Made by a program: the position numbers and the translations under genes
Shown: one piece after another, positions 327 through 10,126 of the stretch
Position numbering within the stretch: the stretch's first letter is position 1
Layout of the letters: every line of letters begins with the position of its first letter
Notes under the pieces: generated by a model
Databases searched by the model: none
The model's input: only the letters and a program-made list of their open reading frames with translations
What the model was told of the DNA's origin: nothing
NCBI GenBank assembly: GCA_046565645.1
Contig: JBKHYD010000015.1
Span: forward strand, 114,268 to 178,267
DNA from: Acidimicrobiia bacterium
GTDB taxonomy: Bacteria > Actinomycetota > Acidimicrobiia > Acidimicrobiales > VFJN01
Direction: 5' to 3'
Length of the DNA: 64,000 nt

Positions 327-2242
<1,916 letters not shown>

Positions 2243-2256
2243 AGGAACGGCAACCG

Positions 2257-3018
2257 ATGCACGTGAAGCTCCACGTCTGGCGCCAGGCCGGCCCCGAGGC
2301 CCCCGGCGCCATGGAGACCTACGAGGCCACCGACATCTCCGAGGAGATGAGCTTCCTCGAGATGCTCGACGTCGTGAACGAGCGGCTCGTCAGCGAGGGC
2401 AAGGAGCCGATCGCCTTCGAGCACGACTGCCGCGAGGGCATCTGCGGCTCGTGCGGGATGATGATCAACGGCCAGGCCCACGGCCCCCAGAAGGGCACCG
2501 CCACCTGCCAGCTGCACATGCGGAAGTTCGCCGACGGGGACGAGATCCACATCGAGCCCTGGCGGGCCAAGGCCTTCCCGGTCCTGAAGGACCTCATCGT
2601 CGACCGCTCCCCCCTCGACGAGATCATCGAGGCGGGCGGGTTCATCAGCGCCCCCACCGGCGCCGCGCCCGACGCCAACCTCATCCCGGTCCCGAAGGAG
2701 GCGGCTGACGCGGCGATGGACGCCGCCGCCTGCATCGGCTGCGGGGCCTGCGTGGCCGCCTGCCCGAACTCGGCCGGTCAGCTCTTCACCGCGGCCAAGG
2801 CGCAGCACCTCAACCTGCTCCCCCAGGGCCAGGCCGAGCGCTACCAGCGGGTCGCGGCCATGGTCGACGCGATGGAGTCCTTCTTCGGCTCCTGCACCAA
2901 CCACGGCGAGTGCCAGGAGGCGTGCCCGAAGGAGATCTCGATCGACTTCATCGCCTACCTGAACCGCGACTACGTGAAGGCGCAGATCAAGAACCGCAAG
3001 CTGGCGGGCCAGCGCTGA
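2257..3018 (+). CDS. sdhB: Succinate dehydrogenase/fumarate reductase iron-sulfur subunit
   Basis: [34 protein letters not shown] Fe-S motifs; ATG 2257 after AGAGGA; 3' end of track ORF 280..3018. Confidence 0.95.
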
Positions 3019-3677
3019 TCGGGCTGGCCGCCGCCGCGGCGGAGGAGGACCTGGGCGGCCTGGCCGGCTGGGTCGTCGACGTCATCGAGCGCATCGGGGC
3101 CGTGGGCGTCGGCGCGCTCGTCGCCCTCGAGACGGTGTTCCCGCCCATCCCCTCCGAGGTCATCCTGCCCTTCGCCGGGTTCAGCGCCGCGCAGGGGGAC
3201 GTCAACCTCGTGGCGGCCTGGGTGGCGGCCACCGTCGGCGCGCTCGTCGGGGCCTGGCTGCTGTACGGGATCGGGGCGATGGTCGGGATCGAGCGGATCG
3301 CCGTGCTGGCATCGAAGCGGTGGTTCCCGCTGTTCAGCTCCACCGACCTCGATCGGGGCGACAGGTTCTTCCGCCGCCACGGGGACAAGGTGGTGCTCCT
3401 CGGCCGCTGCATCCCCCTCGTCCGGAGCATCGTGTCGGTCCCCGCCGGCATCGACCGGATGCCGCTCGGACGGTTCACGATGCTCACCGCCCTCGGGAGC
3501 GGCGTGTGGAACGCCCTCTTCATCGGCGCCGGCTACCAGCTGGGCAACCGATGGGACACCGTCGAGAGCTGGATCAAGCCGCTCAGCTACTCCGTGGTGG
3601 CGCTGCTCGGCCTCGGCGTGCTCGTGCTCGTCTGGCGGAAGCGGGAGGCCGTGAAGGCCGGCCGGGTCAGCGGCTGA
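3015..3677 (+). CDS. DedA family membrane protein
   Basis: [18 protein letters not shown] and [16 protein letters not shown] motifs; start uncertain (in-frame CTG at 3015 overlapping the sdhB stop). Confidence 0.85.
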
Positions 3678-3683
3678 GCGACC

Positions 3684-4616
3684 TCACGGGCGGGGCTGGT
3701 TCCACTCGGTCCAGCCCACGCCGCGGCGACCGTCGGCGGCCTCGAAGCGGCACAGTGCCCTGGGGAAGCGGGCCACGCGCGGACCGGACCCGTCGTCGTC
3801 GACGAGGTTGACGGGCGAGAAGGCCACCGGCTCGACGGCGAGGTCGAGGTCGCCGCAGCGGAGCCGGGCGGAGGTCGGGAAGCCGTCGGCGTCGAGCTCC
3901 TCCTCGGCGGTGCAGAGGTCGATCTGCTGCACCGGGCCCCCAGGCGCCATCGTGTAGCCGGGTGCGAACGCCTCCAGACCGGGGATGCGGACCCGGGTGG
4001 TGTGGAAGCGGGTGCCGTCGTCCATCCAGCCCGCCGTCCACACCCAGCCCACGGTCCACCAGTCCCGCACGCCCCACGAGTGGTCGCGCTGGCCGACGCC
4101 GTCGAAGGCGATCGTCTCGTCGCCGACCAGGATCTCGCCGTGGACCATGCAGGACACCTCGTAGCGGGTGGTAGCCGGCCACGGGTAGACGCCGGACCCG
4201 TCGGTCTCCCACTCGAGGTCGAGCCCGAAGGGCACCCGATCGCCTCGAAGGTCGCCGTAGACCTCCTTGGGGTCGTCCACGGCGACGGCGAACGCCTCGC
4301 ACCCGAGCGTCAGGTGCTCGAACGGGGTCTCCACGGTGTGGTCGGCCCAGAGGCCCTCCGCCCGCACCTCGAGCGACGGGGCGGTGGGCAGCGGGACCTC
4401 GTGGTCGATGACGGTCACGAGCGGTCGCCCCTCCCCGACCAGGCAAGCCCAGTACCAGGCCACGCCCAGGTTGGGGTAGAGGCCGAGCCGCACGTAGCCG
4501 CCGAGCGTGCCGTCACGGTTCGCGAAGTCGAAGTACCAGGACTCCCCCCACAGCCGCTCTTCGCCCCACGGGTGGGCCAGCTCGTCGCTCTGTGCCAGGC
4601 CGTCGACGTCCATCAC
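3684..4616 (-). CDS. Uncharacterised CrtC/AttH(lipocalin)-like beta-barrel protein
   Basis: WGESWYFDF and GQRDHSWGVRDW motifs; GTG start overlaps the upstream stop (GTGA); 3' part of track ORF 3684..5351. Confidence 0.7.
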   Translation of the reverse strand: MMDVDGLAQSDELAHPWGEERLWGESWYFDFANRDGTLGGYVRLGLYPNLGVAWYWACLVGEGRPLVTVIDHEVPLPTAPSLEVRAEGLWADHTVETPFEHLTLGCEAFAVAVDDPKEVYGDLRGDRVPFGLDLEWETDGSGVYPWPATTRYEVSCMVHGEILVGDETIAFDGVGQRDHSWGVRDWWTVGWVWTAGWMDDGTRFHTTRVRIPGLEAFAPGYTMAPGGPVQQIDLCTAEEELDADGFPTSARLRCGDLDLAVEPVAFSPVNLVDDDGSGPRVARFPRALCRFEAADGRRGVGWTEWNQPRP

Positions 4617-5755
4617 GCTCCCTCGCTGTCGGGGTACCGCTCGTAGTAGGGGCCTTCGTCGGGGACGCCCGCGTTGTCGCCCTGGATGGCCGAGAACAGC
4701 TCGTAGGCCGGGCCCGGCAGGTCTCGGGGAACGGTCCAGTCCAGCTCGTCGGCCACCCCGGCCTCGACGGCGAAGGGGCGCAGGAACGTGAAGTACACGT
4801 AGGCGCCGGCCCGGATCTTCTCGTCCCGGCTCATGGCGGCGATGTTCCGGTAGTGCTGGGACTGCGCCTCGCGGACGGCGGCCACGATGCCGTCGTACTC
4901 CTCCGCTGGGACGAGCCGGAGCTCGCCGGGCGGCAGCCCGTCGGTGGTGTAGAGGGCGAAGCCGACCAGGTGGTCGAGGTAGCCCTCGGGGTCGTGGTTG
5001 CTGGTGCCGAAGTCCGTGAAGCGGCTCTCGACCCCCTCCAGCACGAGGGCCGCCGTCAGGTGGTGGTACGGCACGTCGGCGGCCACGTCGGACCACGGGA
5101 AGTCGCTCTCGGACAGGCGGTAGAAGTCGCGCACCAGCAGCGTCCGTCCGGGCTGGCCGGGGACGGGGTAGGGCCCGCTGTCGGCGTAGCCGGCCCGGGT
5201 GTCGAAGTAGAGCAGGAAGAGGTGGTTGACGAGCGTGGCGCTGAAGCGCTTCACCTGGGTGCGGCGCTCGTCGTCCTCGATGGGCTCCAGCGAGGCCAGC
5301 AGGGCCGCCACGGTGGCCTCGTCGTACGGGGTGTTCGTGCCGGTGTCCCACGTCTGCCGGGTGCCGTCGCCGCCCCGGTAGGCCATCGCCGCCCGCTCCC
5401 AGAAGTCGAGCACGGTGGCGGTGCGCTCCGGGTCGTCGACCGAGGGGTCGACCACCGCCATGATCTTGCGGCCCAGCAGGAAGAAGTTGGCGATCGACCA
5501 GAGGTAGCAGGCGTCGACCTGGCAGCCCGGGCGACGGGCCCGCCGCCCGATCTCCTCGGCTGGCATGGCCTCGTCGATCCGCTGCACCATGTCGGGGTAG
5601 CGCAGGAAGGCCTCGGCGCAGGCCACCACGATGTACGCGGTGACCGGGATCAGCGCGCTCTCCAGGGAGGTCCGCTCCTCGGTGAGGGCCTTCGAAATCG
5701 GCGCGTGGTAGTCGATGAGGCGGTTGGCGCGCGCCCGGGCCGGCTCCTCACCCAC
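4613..5755 (-). CDS. Hypothetical protein (380 aa) coupled to the phospho-His domain gene
   Basis: Protein-like composition, host-like codon pattern, overlaps both neighbours; no family recognised. Confidence 0.75.
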   Translation of the reverse strand: MGEEPARARANRLIDYHAPISKALTEERTSLESALIPVTAYIVVACAEAFLRYPDMVQRIDEAMPAEEIGRRARRPGCQVDACYLWSIANFFLLGRKIMAVVDPSVDDPERTATVLDFWERAAMAYRGGDGTRQTWDTGTNTPYDEATVAALLASLEPIEDDERRTQVKRFSATLVNHLFLLYFDTRAGYADSGPYPVPGQPGRTLLVRDFYRLSESDFPWSDVAADVPYHHLTAALVLEGVESRFTDFGTSNHDPEGYLDHLVGFALYTTDGLPPGELRLVPAEEYDGIVAAVREAQSQHYRNIAAMSRDEKIRAGAYVYFTFLRPFAVEAGVADELDWTVPRDLPGPAYELFSAIQGDNAGVPDEGPYYERYPDSEGA

Positions 5756-6092
5756 GGACGATCCCCTCGGGGCCGGAGCAGTCGAGCTCCACCTCGGTTC
5801 CGGCTGCTGGCTCGCCGCCGGGGAACTGGCAGCCCATCACGCAGGGGACCTGGAACTCCCGGCTCACGATGCCGATGTGGCTGCGCAGCGTCCCGCTGGT
5901 GCAGACGATGCCCGTCAGCTCGTGGTAGATCGGGGCCAGGAAGGTGGCCCCGGCGTCGCGCACGAGCGCCACCACCCCGTCGGCACCGGTGTCCATCAGG
6001 GCCAGCACGTCGTCCGGGCCCTCCATCGGTGTGAACCGGCCCCGCACGGGCGCGTGGTCGAACACCTTGGCCCCCCGTCCCAGGTCTCGCAT
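5748..6092 (-). CDS. Stand-alone PEP-utilising enzyme mobile (phospho-His swivel) domain protein
   Basis: SGTLRSHIGIVSREFQVPCVMG matches the GGxTSHAAIVAR..IP.V.G motif of PPDK/PEP synthase/Enzyme I; His codon at 5877-5879. Confidence 0.85.
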   Translation of the reverse strand: MRDLGRGAKVFDHAPVRGRFTPMEGPDDVLALMDTGADGVVALVRDAGATFLAPIYHELTGIVCTSGTLRSHIGIVSREFQVPCVMGCQFPGGEPAAGTEVELDCSGPEGIVRG

Positions 6093-6156
6093 GGCGAGGG
6101 ACCCTACTGGTCGTCGAGCCGGCCGCCACTGCTCGCCGGGTGGGTAGCGTCGGGCC

Positions 6157-6549
6157 GTGGCCGACTTCCTGAGCGACCCCTGGTTCGACGAGCTGGCGGC
6201 CGCCGCGGCACAGGCCCGGCCCCCGGAGGGCGTCCGCGTCGTGCTGCAGCAGGTGGTCAGCGACGACGCGTCAGCGGGTGCCCGCCCGCTCGAGGTGGCC
6301 TATGCCCTGCGGGTGGGCGACGGTCGGGTTGAGGTGGTCCGGGGCACGGTCCCCGACGCGGACGTGACCTTTCGCCTGGACCGGGCCACGGCCGCCGCGA
6401 TCGCACGGGGCGAGCTGAGCGCCCAGGCCGCGTTCCTGGCCGGGCGCCTGCGCATCGGTGGGGACGTGCACCGGTTCGGGGGCGCGGCGGAGGCCCTCGC
6501 CGACCTCGCCGACGTGTTCGGACAGGTGCGGGCCTCGACCCGCTGGTGA
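6157..6549 (+). CDS. SCP2 sterol/lipid-binding domain protein
   Basis: FLSDPWF start, PDADVTF..., LSAQAAFLAGRLRIGGD SCP2-type pattern; TAGCGT 6 nt upstream of the GTG. Confidence 0.75.
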   Translation: MADFLSDPWFDELAAAAAQARPPEGVRVVLQQVVSDDASAGARPLEVAYALRVGDGRVEVVRGTVPDADVTFRLDRATAAAIARGELSAQAAFLAGRLRIGGDVHRFGGAAEALADLADVFGQVRASTRW

Positions 6550-6717
6550 GCGCGACCGCCAGACAGACCCGGCTTGGACCAGGTGCGCGCTCAGCACCGG
6601 CCTGGCGGACACCTGCGAGCACCGCATGCTCGTCCCGCGCGTTCTCGGCGGCCTCACCCAGATCGCCCGGGGCGAACAGGGTCGAAGGTCCCTCTGGCCC
6701 TTGTAGGTTGGGGCGCC

Positions 6718-7554
6718 GTGCCGGAGCTCCCCGAGATCCAAGCGCACGCCGAGCGCCTCCACCGAGCCTTCGCGGGGGCCCGGTTGGAGCGCTTCGCCCC
6801 CCTCGCCTTCACCGTGCTCAAGACCGCCACGCCCCCGGCGGACGTCACCCACGGCCACGAGGTGGTCTTCGTCGGGCACCGGGGCAAGCACCTGCTCATC
6901 GACGTCGGGATGGCCACGTTCGTGATCCACCTGATGCAGGGCGGGCGCCTCGTCGTGGACGAGAAGCAGGCGGCCCGGCCCCGCAACGGTCAGGCCCGGT
7001 GGCTCTTCGACGACGGGCGGGCGCTGCTCCTCACCGAGGCCGGCACCGAGCGCAAGGCTGGCGTGTGGGTCGTGGCCGACGACCCGGAGGACCAGCCCCC
7101 CTTGGACGGCCTCGGCCCCGACGCCGGGTCGGTCGACCTGGACGAGCTGCAGGCCCTGCTCCAGGCGCACCCGATGCGGCTGCACGGGTTCCTGCGGGAC
7201 CAGCGGATCCTGGCCGGTCTGGGCCGGCGCCTGGCCAACGAGGTCTGCCACCGGGCGCAGCTCTCGCCGTTCGCCAACACCGCCAAGCTCGACCGCGACG
7301 ACGTGAAGCGCCTCCGGGAGGCGGTCGCCGTGTGCGTCAACGAGGGGCTGGCCTACGAGCGGGGCCTCGAGCAGATGAGCGCCTCCGCCGACCGCCCGGG
7401 CCACGTGCACCACCGGGTGGGCGAGCCGTGCCCCGCCTGCGGAGACACCATCCGATCGGTCGAGTACAGCGCCTACACGGTCGCCTACTGCCCCACCTGC
7501 CAGACCGGCGGCAGGGTCCTGGCCGACAACACGACCAGCCGCTTCTTGAAGTAG
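6718..7554 (+). CDS. Fpg/Nei family DNA glycosylase/AP lyase
   Basis: N-terminal PELPE, H2TH region LAGLGRRLANEV, C-terminal zinc finger CPACG...CPTCQ. Confidence 0.9.
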   Translation: MPELPEIQAHAERLHRAFAGARLERFAPLAFTVLKTATPPADVTHGHEVVFVGHRGKHLLIDVGMATFVIHLMQGGRLVVDEKQAARPRNGQARWLFDDGRALLLTEAGTERKAGVWVVADDPEDQPPLDGLGPDAGSVDLDELQALLQAHPMRLHGFLRDQRILAGLGRRLANEVCHRAQLSPFANTAKLDRDDVKRLREAVAVCVNEGLAYERGLEQMSASADRPGHVHHRVGEPCPACGDTIRSVEYSAYTVAYCPTCQTGGRVLADNTTSRFLK

Positions 7555-7573
7555 CGGGCGGGGGCGCTGCGGG

Positions 7574-8572
7574 CTAGATGAGCCCGAGGTCCTTCACGGC
7601 GTCGCGCTCCTCCACGAGCTCCCCGGCGCTCTTGTCGATGCCGGCTCGGCTGAAGTCGTCGATGTCGAGGCCCTGGACGACCTCGTAGCGCCCGTCGCGG
7701 CAGGTCACCGGGAACGAGGAGATGATCCCCTCGGGGACCCCGTAGGAGCCGTCGCTCGGGATCGCCATCGAGACCCAGTCGCCCTCGGGCGTGCCGAGGG
7801 ACCAGCTCCGGATGTGGTCGACCGCGGCGTTGGCGGCCGAGGCCGCCGACGAGAGGCCCCGGGCCTTGATGATGGCGGCACCCCGCTGCTGCACCGTGGG
7901 GATGAACTCGTCCTCCAGCCACGCCTGGTCGCGGCCGACGGCGTCGAACGCCGGTCGGCCGGCCACCTCGGCGTGGAACACGTCGGGGTACTGGGTGGCC
8001 GAGTGGTTGCCCCAGATCGTCATCTTGGTGACGTCGGTGCTGTGGGCGCCGGCCTTGGCGGCCAGCTGCGCAACAGCCCGGTTGTGGTCCAGGCGGGTCA
8101 TGGCGGTGAAGCGGTGGGGGTCGAGGTCTTTGGCGTTCTGCTGGGCGATCAGGGCGTTCGTGTTGGCCGGGTTCCCGACCACCAGCACCTTCACGTCTCG
8201 CTTCGCGCTTCGGGAGAGCGCCTCGCCCTGGGGCTTGAAGATGCCGCCGTTGGCGCCGAGGAGGTCGGCCCGCTCCATCCCGTCCTTGCGGGGCATGGCC
8301 CCCACGAGCAGCGCGACTTCGGCATCACCGAAGGCGACATCCGGGTCGTCGGTCTTCACCATGCCGGCGAGGAGCGGGAAGGCGCAGTCCTCGAGCTCCA
8401 TGGCCACCCCGTCCAGCGCTCCGAGGGCCGGCGTGATCTCGAGCATCTGGAGGACCACCGGCTGGTCGGGGCCGAGCATCGAACCCGACGCGATCCGGAA
8501 CAGGAGGCTGTAGCCGATCTGGCCAGCAGCCCCGGTGACAGCGACGCGGACGGGAGCCTCAGCAGATGCCAT
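7574..8572 (-). CDS. mdh: Malate dehydrogenase
   Basis: [43 protein letters not shown]. Confidence 0.97.
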
Positions 8573-8632
8573 GCGCCGAACCTAGTTGCCCTCCTCGAGG
8601 CCGCTCACATCGCTGCCCGCCTTCGGGGAGCA

Positions 8633-8664
8633 CGAGGGGGGCTGCCTCCCGGCACCCCCCCTCG
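8633..8664. terminator. GC-rich imperfect hairpin between the aldehyde dehydrogenase gene and mdh
   Basis: CGAGGGGGG-C-TGCC...GGCA-C-CCCCCCTCG; no U-tract, function inferred. Confidence 0.3.
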
Positions 8665-8698
8665 CCTGCGAACGACCCGGCTCCGGTCCGAGCTCGAC

Positions 8699-10126
8699 CT
8701 AGAGCTGCATCGACTTGACCTCGAGGAACTCCTCGAAGCCGAAGGTGCCGTACTCGCGGCCGTAGCCGGACTGCTTGTAGCCGCCGAAGGGTGCGTTGGG
8801 GTTGAACGAGCCGCCGTTCACCTCGATCTGCCCGGTGCGGATCTGGCGGGCGATCGCCTTGGCCCGCTCGGGGTCCGCCGACCACACGCCGCCCGACAGC
8901 CCGTAGGGCGAGTCGTTCGCGATCTCGACCGCCTCGTCCACCGACTCGTACGGCAGGATCGACAGCACCGGGCCGAAGATCTCCTCCTGGGCGATCGTCA
9001 TGTCGTTGCGGACCTCGGAGAACACGGTGGGCCGCACGTAGAAGCCCTGCTCGAAGCCCTCGGGCCGCTCCGGGCCGCCGGTGACCAGCTTGGCGCCCTC
9101 GTCGATGCCCTTCTGGATGTAGCTGGTGACCCGGTCCACCTGGGCCTGGCTGGCCAGCGGTCCGAGGCGGGCGCCGTCGGCGAAGGGGTCCATCGGCTGG
9201 TAGTTGGTCTCGACCTCGTCGGCCGCGATGCGCTCGGCGTCGGCCAGGCGGCTGGCGGGCACCAGCATCCGGGTGAGCGCGGTGCAGGTCTGGCCCTGGT
9301 TGATGTAGCACTTGCCGATGCCGTCGCGGACGGCCTTCTCGAAGCCGGCGTCGTCGAGGTCGTCGAGGAGGATGTTGGCGGACTTGCCGCCCAGCTCGAG
9401 CGCCACCCGCTTCAGGGTCTCGGACGCGGCGGCGGCCACGGCCTTGCCGGCCCGGGTGGAGCCGGTGAAGGACACCATGTCGACCTTCGGGTGGCGGGAG
9501 ATGGCCTCGCCGACCACGGGACCGGTGCCGGTCACGAGGTTGAAGACGCCGGCGGGGAGGCCGGCGTCGTGGATGACCTCGGCGAGGATGTAGGCGTCGA
9601 GCGGGGCGATCTCGCTCGGCTTCAGCACCACCGTGCAGCCGGCCGCCATGGCGTAGGCCACCTTGGCCGCGATCTGGTGGAGGGGGTAGTTCCAGGGGGT
9701 GATGGCGCCGACCACGCCGACGGGCTCGCGCACGACCAGGCTGTTGCCGACGGTGGTCTCGTACTCGTAGCTCTCGGCGATCTGGGCTGCGGTGCTGAAC
9801 GAGTTGATGGGGAGGCCGGCCTGGACGAGCAGGCTCAGCCACTTGGGCATGCCGGCTTCGCGCGTGACGACGGTGGCGATCTCGTCCATGCGGGCGCCGA
9901 GGCCCTCGGCGATGCGGGTGCAGAACTTGGCCCGCTCCTCGGGGCTCTTGGCCGCCCACTCGGGGAACGCCCTGGCAGCCGCCTCGACGGCCTTGTCCAC
10001 GTCGGCTGCGCTGCCGTTCGGGATGGACCCGATGACCTCACCGTTGGTGGAGTCGTAGACGTCGATCGTGCCCGAGCCCTCGGACGGGATCCAGGCGCCG
10101 TCGATGTAGATCTTGTCGTGCTGCAC
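8699..10126 (-). CDS. Aldehyde dehydrogenase family protein
   Basis: [22 protein letters not shown], catalytic GQTC, EEIFGPV; GTG 10126 with AGGGGG upstream. Confidence 0.93.

Follow-up and report, generated by a model that had tools for sequence, protein, structure and literature searches.

Analysis of a 64,000-nucleotide stretch of an Acidimicrobiia genome (the window) uncovered an operon in which a stand-alone PEP-utiliser mobile (swivel) phosphohistidine domain, here called HisDom, is encoded with a 380-aa protein of an uncurated family (P380) and a DUF7065/DUF7064 double β-barrel protein. Genomic linkage, natural fusions and the conservation of their parts support HisDom and P380 as functional partners, and the predicted structure of P380 has a fold that is new relative to the PDB. 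The best reading of the three genes is as one system that would dehydrate an unactivated alcohol via a phosphoester, a reading that we advance tentatively and judge slightly more apt to fail than to hold. Within it, lyase activity, the class of substrate and the way in which the phosphoryl group moves are inferred, and there are no biochemical or expression data.

Linkage of a free swivel domain to P380

The three genes overlap on the minus strand. HisDom (114 aa; 5748–6092, minus strand) and P380 (4613–5755, minus strand), its probable catalytic partner, share 8 nt at 5755–5748 (GTGGGTGA), and P380 shares 4 nt (GTGA, 4616–4613) with the gene of the double-barrel protein (310 aa; 3684–4616, minus strand), both junctions being read directly from the sequence. 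An SCP2-like gene (130 aa; 6157–6549, plus strand) diverges from HisDom, and the 64 nt separating the two starts at 6092 and 6157 form an intergenic region (6093–6156, no strand) where promoters are presumed to lie. A scan of positions 3500–6700 returned no sigma-70 consensus or terminator, which is uninformative at 72% GC in an actinobacterium. In a search of sequencing runs, the sequence was present only in soil metagenome DNA runs, and there is no transcription evidence for co-transcription. The original prediction, made from sequence alone, had described three overlapping genes with 8-nt and 4-nt overlaps, the first encoding only the swivel His domain (SHIGIVSRE), an SCP2 gene 64 nt away on the opposite strand, and no ATP-grasp or PEP-binding domain in the window. 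All of this held in every detail.

HisDom matches PF00391 over profile positions 3–70 of 72 (E = 6.5e-10), scoring 38.9 bits where the cut-off is 23.1. Its sequence RSHIGIVSRE includes the catalytic His72 (codon at 5877–5879, minus strand). Both the curated score threshold and the presence of the catalytic His in a conserved T/S-x-H loop are satisfied for family membership. When HisDom sequences are aligned, His72 is identical in 82/82, and the surrounding motif C-T-x-G-T-x-R-S-H-I-G-I-V-S-R-E is invariant or nearly so.

P380 adjoins HisDom in 81/81 Acidimicrobiia loci, with a DUF7065-family gene nearby in 75/81. The arrangement was found again in 80 other genomes, which is far beyond chance, and P380 itself occurs in 283 species-level genomes. 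The HisDom–P380 linkage survives rearrangement and is kept at 28–36% identity in unrelated contexts, and three natural swivel–P380 fusions were recovered (P0122, P0200 and P0223). It is the adjacency in every Acidimicrobiia locus, the 8-nt overlap, these fusions and the invariant His72 that support the partnership. An explanation without joint function, in which the swivel gene is a decaying dikinase fragment and adjacency is inherited synteny, could draw on the restriction of all 80 close loci to one class, Acidimicrobiia, and on the flanking genes sdh, fpg and mdh, which are also syntenic there. The fusions, the persistence of linkage through rearrangement and divergence, and the invariance of His72 and its motif effectively refute this explanation, and we regard it as all but excluded.

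The SCP2-like protein meets the requirement for membership of PF02036 (E = 2e-9; 38.1 bits against a cut-off of 21.3). Its gene was detected by tblastn in 56 of the 81 Acidimicrobiia loci; most of seven further loci inspected have divergent SCP2-like ORFs in the same gap, two of the four scanned being above the Pfam cut-off. It is always accompanied by fpg, and is missing from six rearranged loci and from all distant loci. In related Microthrixaceae loci, a zf-CGNR regulator gene that is missing from the window lies between the HisDom and SCP2 positions. The SCP2 gene had been taken from the outset as a pointer to a hydrophobic substrate, a signal that proved inseparable from lineage-wide synteny with fpg. 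The protein might deliver a lipid substrate or might be a mere syntenic neighbour, and its functional connection with the operon is unproven.

P380 and the source of the phosphoryl group

P380 has no match in Pfam or NCBIfam, and none among PDB sequences, whether searched as a single sequence or as a 39-sequence profile. Its AF2 model (pLDDT 95.2, pTM 0.93) found no fold match in the PDB by Foldseek (best E 0.48, TM 0.12). Weak Foldseek matches to a START/helix-grip-like fold (probability ≤0.09) were not counted as evidence. More than 1600 homologues remain at 90% clustering and 463 clusters at 50%, and identity across genera is ~80%. Conserved residues in the alignment are G95-R96, [D/E]-x-R187, D-[S/T]-G194-P195-Y196 and R209, the invariant set being three arginines and the D-S/T-G-P-Y loop; no nucleotide-binding motif was found in the conserved columns. 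The C-terminal extension of longer homologues yielded nothing in Pfam, even at E 1. Failure of the genes to co-occur, loss of the His from orthologs, or placement of P380 in an unrelated characterised family would each have refuted the original prediction, and none of these was observed.

A dikinase would be expected to carry PPDK_N in the same protein or operon, which is not the case in the window or in the 80 related loci, and no ATP-grasp was found within 8 kb of P380 in 80 Acidimicrobiia loci. Nor does P380 qualify as a known dikinase acceptor, that is, a PEP/pyruvate TIM barrel or a rifampin-binding domain, by Pfam, NCBIfam or Foldseek. In the 3.25-Mb genome, PPDK_N is confined to a single canonical PPDK of 950 aa, encoded on another contig, and PEP-utilizers_C occurs only in that PPDK and in one weak match on contig 45. 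Because no ATP-grasp lies near P380 and the genome has only this PPDK, the donor step is unexplained in Acidimicrobiia: His72 could be phosphorylated in trans by the housekeeping PPDK, or at a donor site inside P380, and we treat both as possibilities. A PPDK_N gene is present in 49/50 P380 genomes, so an absence of PPDK cannot be used to rule out a trans-acting donor.

Distant P380 homologues (28–36% identity) do show an ATP-grasp association, with a PPDK_N gene in the cluster in four of eight informative contexts. It directly follows P380 in three of them, as a stand-alone PPDK_N (L087) or as PPDK_N-swivel (L090/91 and L105), and a partial PPDK_N lies two genes downstream in the fourth (L103). 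A check for PPDK_N fusion or co-occurrence had been proposed along with the original prediction, and in distant relatives its outcome was positive, with the three swivel–P380 fusions and these PPDK_N genes. Since PPDK_N genes adjoin distant P380 genes and P380 lacks a nucleotide-binding motif, we lean towards a split dikinase in which P380 is the catalytic module on the acceptor side rather than the donor, an inference from gene context. The earlier proposal that P380 is an unrecognised donor or acceptor is therefore supported and refined.

The opposite assignment, a three-part kinase, remains possible. Here P380 would be a new nucleotide- or PEP-binding donor that charges His72, the barrel would be the acceptor site and the product a stable phosphoester, mirroring the three domains of PPDK or rifampin phosphotransferase. 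In its favour are the lack of ATP-grasp in the 80 Acidimicrobiia loci, and in the genome beyond PPDK, the fit of three components to a donor/carrier/acceptor scheme, and the fact that, of the three proteins, only the barrel has a fold recognisable as one for hydrophobic ligands. Against it, the PPDK_N genes beside distant P380 genes would be redundant, HisDom–P380 pairs persist with a degraded barrel or none, barrel paralogues pair with complete APH kinases, the nearest solved relative of the barrel is a lyase and not a kinase domain, and the expected nucleotide-binding motif is missing from P380.

A signalling device was also considered, with P380 as a ligand sensor and the swivel His in a phosphorelay controlling a transcription factor rather than in a metabolic enzyme. 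Regulator genes do recur by the module: zf-CGNR upstream in Microthrixaceae and, in L057 and L066, a MarR gene directly after P380. In addition, a 207-aa protein whose N-terminus may be a winged helix (judged from its sequence by eye; no Pfam match) is fused to P380 in P0200, P0214 and P0226 and is free nearby in L103 and L104. We nevertheless find this reading very unlikely, as PF00391 domains are not known to occur outside enzymes and the PTS, the operon in the window has no regulator, the high P380 identity across genera is typical of enzymes, and the steady association with ATP-grasp genes and with a barrel of enzyme fold speaks for catalysis.

The double β-barrel protein and its substrate

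The third protein matches DUF7064 (E = 1.7e-25; 90.2 bits) and DUF7065 (E = 1.6e-10; 41.8 bits), and its AF2 model (pLDDT 94.5) has 23 strands; since both Pfam domains exceed their thresholds and the model is all-β with two barrels, it meets the requirements for the AttH/CrtC-like tandem-barrel superfamily. The best Foldseek match of the model is 9g4c_B (E 1.3e-11, TM 0.68, probability 1.00), from a phosphate and product complex of the 25-phosphosteroid lyase 25-PSL. Two further 25-PSL structures, 9fzn and 9g2i, align with TM 0.62–0.66, followed by pericyclases, AttH (2ich, TM 0.64) and kievitone hydratase (TM 0.60). The predicted structure thus shares the 25-PSL fold. Sequence similarity is faint: the family profile reaches 9fzn at E 0.003 and the single sequence at E 0.063, with ~15% identity, and two co-linear motifs, YPNLGV and G-x-R-D-x-S-W-G-x-R, are common to both proteins. 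AttH also matches the region of the second motif (E 0.32). The protein did not meet the cut-off for the Rv3169 family NF053593 (37.6 bits against 150), only its N-terminal half aligning. On fold and motifs we infer a probable phosphoester lyase, but phosphate-eliminating activity is not established, because AttH and kievitone hydratase come close to 25-PSL in TM, identity is so low and the profile match is only marginal, and there are no activity data.

The barrel gene is still linked to HisDom/P380 in rearranged loci (L068, L071, L076, L079, L081) and in very distant ones (L088, L090, L092, L096, L105). In Ilumatobacter-type loci the third gene is reduced to its DUF7065 half with a degraded R-D-x-S-W-G motif, L074 and L078 have no third gene, and one distant lineage has P380 and the barrel without a swivel gene within 7 kb. 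In at least nine Actinomycetota genomes from three families, an APH kinase lies within 1 kb of a DUF7065 gene (about 0.5 expected by chance), and the genome of the window itself has APH genes elsewhere, one of them in a paralogous operon of PhyH hydroxylase, DUF7065/64 and APH. These gene contexts make it likely, by inference, that pairing of a kinase with a barrel is a general theme.

All characterised members of the barrel superfamily have a steroid, a polyketide, an isoflavonoid or a carotenoid as their substrate. The neighbours of distant P380 genes include acyl-CoA dehydrogenase, enoyl-CoA hydratase, short-chain dehydrogenase, acyl-CoA synthetase and CoA-transferase genes, a P450 with ferredoxin, and polyketide/fatty-acid synthase genes. 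From these superfamily substrates and lipid and polyketide neighbours, we infer a hydrophobic substrate, probably lipid- or acyl-CoA-like. The initial suggestion that the barrel points to a hydrophobic substrate and to small-molecule phosphorylation or dephosphorylation is supported, and is refined to probable phosphorylation followed by elimination.

In a reversed order of events, the barrel would hydrate an alkene, as CrtC and kievitone hydratase do, and HisDom–P380 would phosphorylate the new alcohol to give a phosphorylated lipid or terpenoid. In support, the fold matches to kievitone hydratase and AttH fall only slightly short of that to 25-PSL, and in L096 a prenyltransferase/terpene-cyclase-like gene precedes P380. 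However, a lyase is the best match of the barrel in both sequence and fold, and the HisDom–P380–barrel order and nearby hydroxylases (PhyH, P450) better suit hydroxylation, phosphorylation and elimination. We consider hydration first unlikely.

Proposed mechanism, related systems and significance

In the preferred reading, dehydration via a phosphoester, His72 of the free swivel domain would be phosphorylated and the domain would then dock on P380, a catalytic domain of new fold predicted to bind a hydrophobic hydroxylated substrate, where the phosphoryl group would move from His72 onto the substrate hydroxyl. The DUF7065/DUF7064 barrel would finally eliminate phosphate to give an alkene, or the phosphate may serve as the leaving group for carbocation chemistry. 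A bolder reading, which is no more than possible, makes P380 the founder of a new phosphotransferase domain class that works solely via the swivel phosphohistidine. It would be self-sufficient in Acidimicrobiia, loading His72 from a nucleotide or PEP and passing the phosphate to a lipid alcohol, and with the 25-PSL-like barrel would make up an energy-driven dehydratase that serves Microthrix-like bacteria as a housekeeping enzyme of lipid metabolism.

PEP synthase, PPDK and rifampin phosphotransferase (structure in PMC4844700) share with the module the PF00391 swivel domain, its conserved catalytic His and a scheme in which a mobile His links a donor and an acceptor domain, and in distant relatives PPDK_N stands alongside the module. 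Unlike in those enzymes, HisDom is a separate protein, P380 resembles neither the TIM barrel nor the rifampin-binding domain, and the Acidimicrobiia module has no ATP-grasp in or near the operon. Phenylphosphate synthase PpsABC of Thauera aromatica is a split PEP-synthase-like enzyme with its ATP-binding and His-carrying parts on separate proteins; like the proposed module it phosphorylates a hydrophobic hydroxyl, that of phenol. The substrate domain of PpsA, however, is still PEP-synthase-like, PpsB is an ATP-grasp, P380 is similar to neither of them, and the next step there is carboxylation rather than elimination.

25-HSK and 25-PSL of Sterolibacterium denitrificans (PMC8449060; 9fzn, 9g2i, 9g4c) carry out the chemistry proposed here, in which an unreactive alcohol is first phosphorylated and its phosphate is eliminated afterwards. 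Their substrates are hydrophobic, as is inferred for the module, and 25-PSL resembles the barrel protein in fold and in the two motifs. The Sterolibacterium kinase and lyase genes are unlinked, unlike the genes of the operon, and the low identity to 25-PSL sets the barrel protein apart. 25-HSK is an APH-type kinase that forms a ternary complex with ATP (PMC8449060) and is unrelated to HisDom and P380, neither of which matches the APH profile (PF01636); homology of either to the 25-hydroxysteroid kinase was rejected on these grounds. In lipid catabolism, ACAD10/ACAD11 phosphorylate a non-activated hydroxyl and then eliminate the phosphate (PMC11342911). LvaA/LvaC are likewise a kinase-plus-eliminase module for hydroxyacyl-CoAs. 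Acyl-CoA dehydrogenase, acyl-CoA synthetase and enoyl-CoA hydratase genes flanking distant P380 genes recall these systems, but their APH-type kinase and acyl-CoA-dehydrogenase-fold eliminase are both missing from the operon. AttH, CrtC, kievitone hydratase and the fungal decalin-forming pericyclases (2ich, 7a0t, 7e5t, 6kaw) share the tandem β-barrel fold (TM 0.5–0.64) and hold hydrophobic substrates in the barrel; unlike the proposed lyase they act as hydratases or cyclases and have no phosphate substrate, and to our knowledge none partners with a kinase or phosphohistidine domain. The literature searched for stand-alone swivel domains, 25-PSL, DUF7064/DUF7065 and Rv3169 contains no description of the module, as the original prediction of a possibly undescribed system had it.

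Swivel-histidine enzymes are so far a small group (PPDK, PEP synthase, PTS enzyme I, rifampin phosphotransferase, phenylphosphate synthase and PigC/RedH), all with recognisable partner domains. The module would enlarge this group by a partner protein whose fold is unknown and which is under very strong selection, as the identity across genera indicates. HisDom, P380 and the barrel protein are small and soluble, with confident models, so the hypothesis is directly testable. If the kinase-plus-lyase reading is true, dehydration by phosphorylation would extend past anaerobic sterol degradation, 4-hydroxyacyl-CoA catabolism and lanthipeptide maturation to actinobacteria that are abundant in soil and activated sludge and known to use lipids, and would provide a function for the DUF7065/DUF7064 family, which has mycobacterial relatives (the NCBIfam Rv3169 family).

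A conserved three-gene operon

The operon occupies the minus strand of a window with a GC content of ~72% and comprises three overlapping open reading frames: a free-standing phosphohistidine swivel domain of 114 aa (HisDom; 5748-6092), a 380-aa protein (P380; 4613-5755), and a 310-aa third protein whose frame ends at 3684 and has an in-frame start at 4616. When the junctions were read directly, the P380 start and HisDom stop overlapped by 8 nt (GTGGGTGA) and P380 overlapped the third gene by 4 nt (GTGA), while the divergent SCP2-like gene begins 64 nt from the HisDom start, at 6157. Pfam matches assign the PEP-utilizers mobile domain (PF00391) and no other domain to HisDom, DUF7065 and DUF7064 to the third protein, and SCP2 to the divergent gene product. 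Across the 3.25-Mb genome (96% complete), one canonical 950-aa PPDK is the sole carrier of PPDK_N, the ATP-grasp domain of that enzyme, and also the only other carrier of PF00391. The open reading frames, junctions, Pfam matches, and genome-wide domain tally therefore confirm the layout, and the original prediction's account of gene order, overlaps, domains, and the 64-nt gap to SCP2 held in every detail. The closest relatives of the window are metagenome-assembled genomes of the Acidimicrobiales/Microthrixaceae, and its own sequence is present in soil metagenomes. In about 11 related loci (L001:7364-7636 and 10 other Microthrixaceae loci), a gene for a 90-aa zf-CGNR regulator lies upstream of the swivel gene; the window lacks this gene and has just 64 nt (6093-6156) between the swivel and SCP2-like genes.

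Homologues of P380 number more than 1600 at 90% clustering, the best 120 being 78-90% identical, and form 463 clusters at 50% identity. When one genome per species was scanned, 283 genomes proved to encode a P380 relative, and the best 80 of them are all Acidimicrobiia-type actinobacteria. In tblastn searches of loci from these 80 genomes plus one metagenome locus, the swivel gene directly adjoins P380 in 81/81 loci and a DUF7065-family gene lies nearby in 75; for four of the remaining six, the contig ends within ~0.5 kb downstream of P380. In six loci, P380 and the swivel gene point away from each other. Five of these (L068, L071, L076, L079, and L081) place the third gene, hereafter the barrel gene, behind the swivel gene on one strand and P380 on the other, so the three genes remain together although the SCP2-like gene and the flanking syntenic gene fpg are lost; tblastn detected no barrel gene in the sixth (L074). 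All 82 sequences compared share His72 of HisDom and most of the motif around it. Among the 50% representatives, three (P0122, P0200, and P0223) carry a PF00391 domain naturally fused to the N-terminal end of P380, which is classical evidence of physical partnership. Lack of co-occurrence, an unconserved histidine, or membership of P380 in an unrelated characterised family would have refuted the proposed module, and none of these was found. The module is real and conserved; the three proteins very likely act together, and HisDom and P380 likely exchange a phosphoryl group.

Gene content around this core varies. In some close relatives, a spacer of ~0.9 kb sets P380 apart from the barrel coding region (L001:9143-10120, L004, L009, L011, L036, and L042); in L001 the gene caller merged this spacer with the barrel into a 629-aa protein, and its N-terminal 326 aa match nothing in Pfam, and in L036 the spacer carries a SIMPL/DUF541 gene on the opposite strand. 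Some Acidimicrobiia loci have a MarR regulator inserted directly after P380 (L057:9129-9629, L066:9133-9600) and a D-2-hydroxyacid dehydrogenase gene immediately upstream of the barrel gene (L057:12010-13014, L062:11779-12714).

Most Acidimicrobiia loci carry an SCP2-like gene transcribed away from the operon; it is always accompanied by fpg. It was missed by tblastn in some loci; most of the seven such loci inspected contain a high-GC3 SCP2-like open reading frame in the same gap, and 2 of the 4 scanned exceed the Pfam SCP2 cut-off. Neither the six rearranged loci nor any of the distant contexts contains the gene. Its product may deliver a lipid substrate, on evidence no stronger than synteny.

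P380 and its association with ATP-grasp domains

P380 has no match in Pfam, NCBIfam, or PDB sequences. An alignment of 39 sequences with identity down to 23%, none with a meaningful Pfam family match, contains no P-loop or other nucleotide motif; conserved features are G95-R96, an acidic-x-R187 motif, a D-S/T-G194-P195-Y196 loop, and R209. The AlphaFold2 model built on this alignment is very confident (pLDDT 95.2, pTM 0.93) and predicts that the N-terminal half is helical and that a six-stranded sheet comes after it, with long helices packed against the sheet. A Foldseek search of 350,542 PDB chains returned no match (best E 0.48, TM 0.12). Given the absence of both family and structural matches, P380 represents an uncurated family whose fold is unrepresented among solved structures. 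The C-termini of three homologues (P0200, P0214, and P0226) carry a ~200-aa domain with a possible winged-helix N-terminus, ending S-Y-H-D-V-W-M-E-L-H-E-D-L; it also occurs as a free 207-aa protein after P380 (L103:2823-3446, L104:4431-5054), and a Pfam search of it gave nothing even at E 1.

Co-occurrence with PPDK_N, put forward in the original prediction as a check on P380, was negative in Acidimicrobiia and positive in distant P380 relatives. In none of 80 Acidimicrobiia loci does a PPDK_N homologue occur within 8 kb of P380, and P380-bearing genomes encode PPDK_N only in housekeeping PPDK/PEPS-like genes far from P380. Among distant homologues (28-36% identity), PPDK_N is adjacent in 4/8 informative contexts. 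In L087, the gene for a stand-alone 370-aa PPDK_N protein (E 2e-43) comes directly after a swivel-P380 fusion, its start overlapping the stop of the fusion gene; genes for a short-chain dehydrogenase, an enoyl-CoA hydratase, and an acyl-CoA dehydrogenase flank it. L090/L091 encode DUF7065, swivel, P380, PPDK_N-swivel, and a ketoreductase-type short-chain dehydrogenase in order, within a KAS III/ACP/polyketide synthase cluster. L105 has the order swivel, P380, PPDK_N-swivel, a 382-aa DUF7065-like protein, SurE, and short-chain dehydrogenase, and L103 the order swivel, P380, 207-aa protein, short-chain dehydrogenase, and a PPDK_N cut by the contig end.

With a dedicated ATP-grasp domain beside swivel-P380, the layout matches the donor/carrier/acceptor scheme found in PPDK and rifampin phosphotransferase, P380 taking the acceptor position. 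This arrangement therefore favours P380 as an acceptor-side catalytic module, and we lean towards that assignment over a donor role. In the window's lineage, His72 might be charged by PPDK in trans or by a second site on P380; comparative genomics could not separate the two, because PPDK_N is nearly universal (49/50 genomes).

Distant contexts without PPDK_N reinforce a metabolic theme. L104 encodes swivel, P380, P450, ferredoxin, the 207-aa protein, acyl-CoA dehydrogenase, and acyl-CoA synthetase. The metagenome contig L088 carries three swivel/P380 pairs in series, one of them fused (1106-8939), along with a DUF7065-like 382-aa gene, a LuxR-type regulator, and an acyl-CoA synthetase; the triplication may reflect paralogue expansion for different substrates. 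Other contexts combine P380 with an APH/EcKL kinase fragment, luciferase-like oxygenase, and swivel gene (L093), a CoA-transferase (L092), or an AMP-binding enzyme (L095).

The barrel protein and neighbouring kinase genes

The best PDB-sequence match of the third protein is 25-phosphosteroid lyase (25-PSL; E 0.063 from the single sequence, 0.003 from a profile), with two co-linear motifs in common, YPNLGV and G-x-R-D-x-S-W-G-x-R; AttH is a weaker match. The AlphaFold2 model (pLDDT 94.5) contains two beta-barrels. Its top Foldseek match is 25-PSL with phosphate and product (9g4c_B; E 1.3e-11, TM 0.68), alongside fungal pericyclases (7e22, Fsa2, Phm7, CghA; E 7e-11 to 7e-8, TM 0.51-0.60), AttH (2ich; E 1.5e-10, TM 0.64), and kievitone hydratase (7a0t, 7a0q; E 1.7e-7, TM 0.58-0.60), so its earlier description as a CrtC/AttH-like barrel held. 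All characterised relatives act on hydrophobic molecules. Since the TM-scores are close, structure alone cannot settle whether the protein is a lyase; genomic context adds weight to that reading, although the activity is inferred.

DUF7065 was found in 43/251 Actinomycetota genomes. At least nine of the 43, in three families, encode an APH-type small-molecule kinase less than 1 kb from the barrel gene, and three further genomes do so within 5 kb; assuming about 10-20 APH genes per 3-Mb genome, chance predicts ~0.5 adjacencies among ~56 barrel genes. The window's own genome contains a paralogous minus-strand operon (L099, contig 42; 2974-6647) encoding a PhyH-type dioxygenase (5757-6647), a DUF7065/DUF7064 protein (from an open reading frame at 4855-6168 that begins upstream of the real start), and a kinase of the APH type (2974-4152). 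An acyl-CoA dehydrogenase is encoded divergently at 1173-2963. The operon resembles a hydroxylase-kinase-lyase set with a conventional kinase. The logic is the same as in Sterolibacterium, whose steroid C25 dehydrogenase, 25-hydroxysteroid kinase (25-HSK), and 25-PSL include an APH-type kinase that phosphorylates a tertiary alcohol before phosphate elimination (PMC8449060). In the window's operon, HisDom-P380 sits where the paralogous operon has APH, which we read as non-homologous kinase replacement. A third DUF7065/DUF7064 paralogue in the genome (5285-6289 within L098:5285-8941, contig 19) neighbours an F420H2-quinone-reductase-like gene, a TetR regulator, and a luciferase-like monooxygenase, with no adjacent kinase.

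The invariable core and the proposed mechanism

In Ilumatobacter-type loci (L031:9084-9779, L055:9130-9819, and similar), the third gene encodes ~230 aa homologous to the DUF7065 half only (hhalign probability 99%), its R-D-x-S-W-G motif is degraded, and HisDom and P380 are intact; the third step may have been lost or changed there. The barrel gene is absent within the available locus sequence of L074 and L078. As HisDom and P380 persist while the barrel is shortened or absent, these two proteins form the invariable core in actinobacteria, and the barrel represents a frequent, not obligatory, third step. In a very distant lineage, beside cdhD (L096/L097; L096:5797-9549), P380 and DUF7065/64 occur with a weakly matching prenyltransferase/terpene-cyclase-like gene and a dual-specificity phosphatase, and no swivel gene was found within 7 kb.

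The full mechanism, in which the substrate would be phosphorylated and the phosphate then eliminated, is the favoured reading but a tentative one, somewhat less likely than not. No description of the module was found in the literature searched. For a system of this kind, coupling swivel-histidine phosphotransfer to a phosphate lyase, the individual parts have precedents; what is new is the partner domain and the way the parts are combined.
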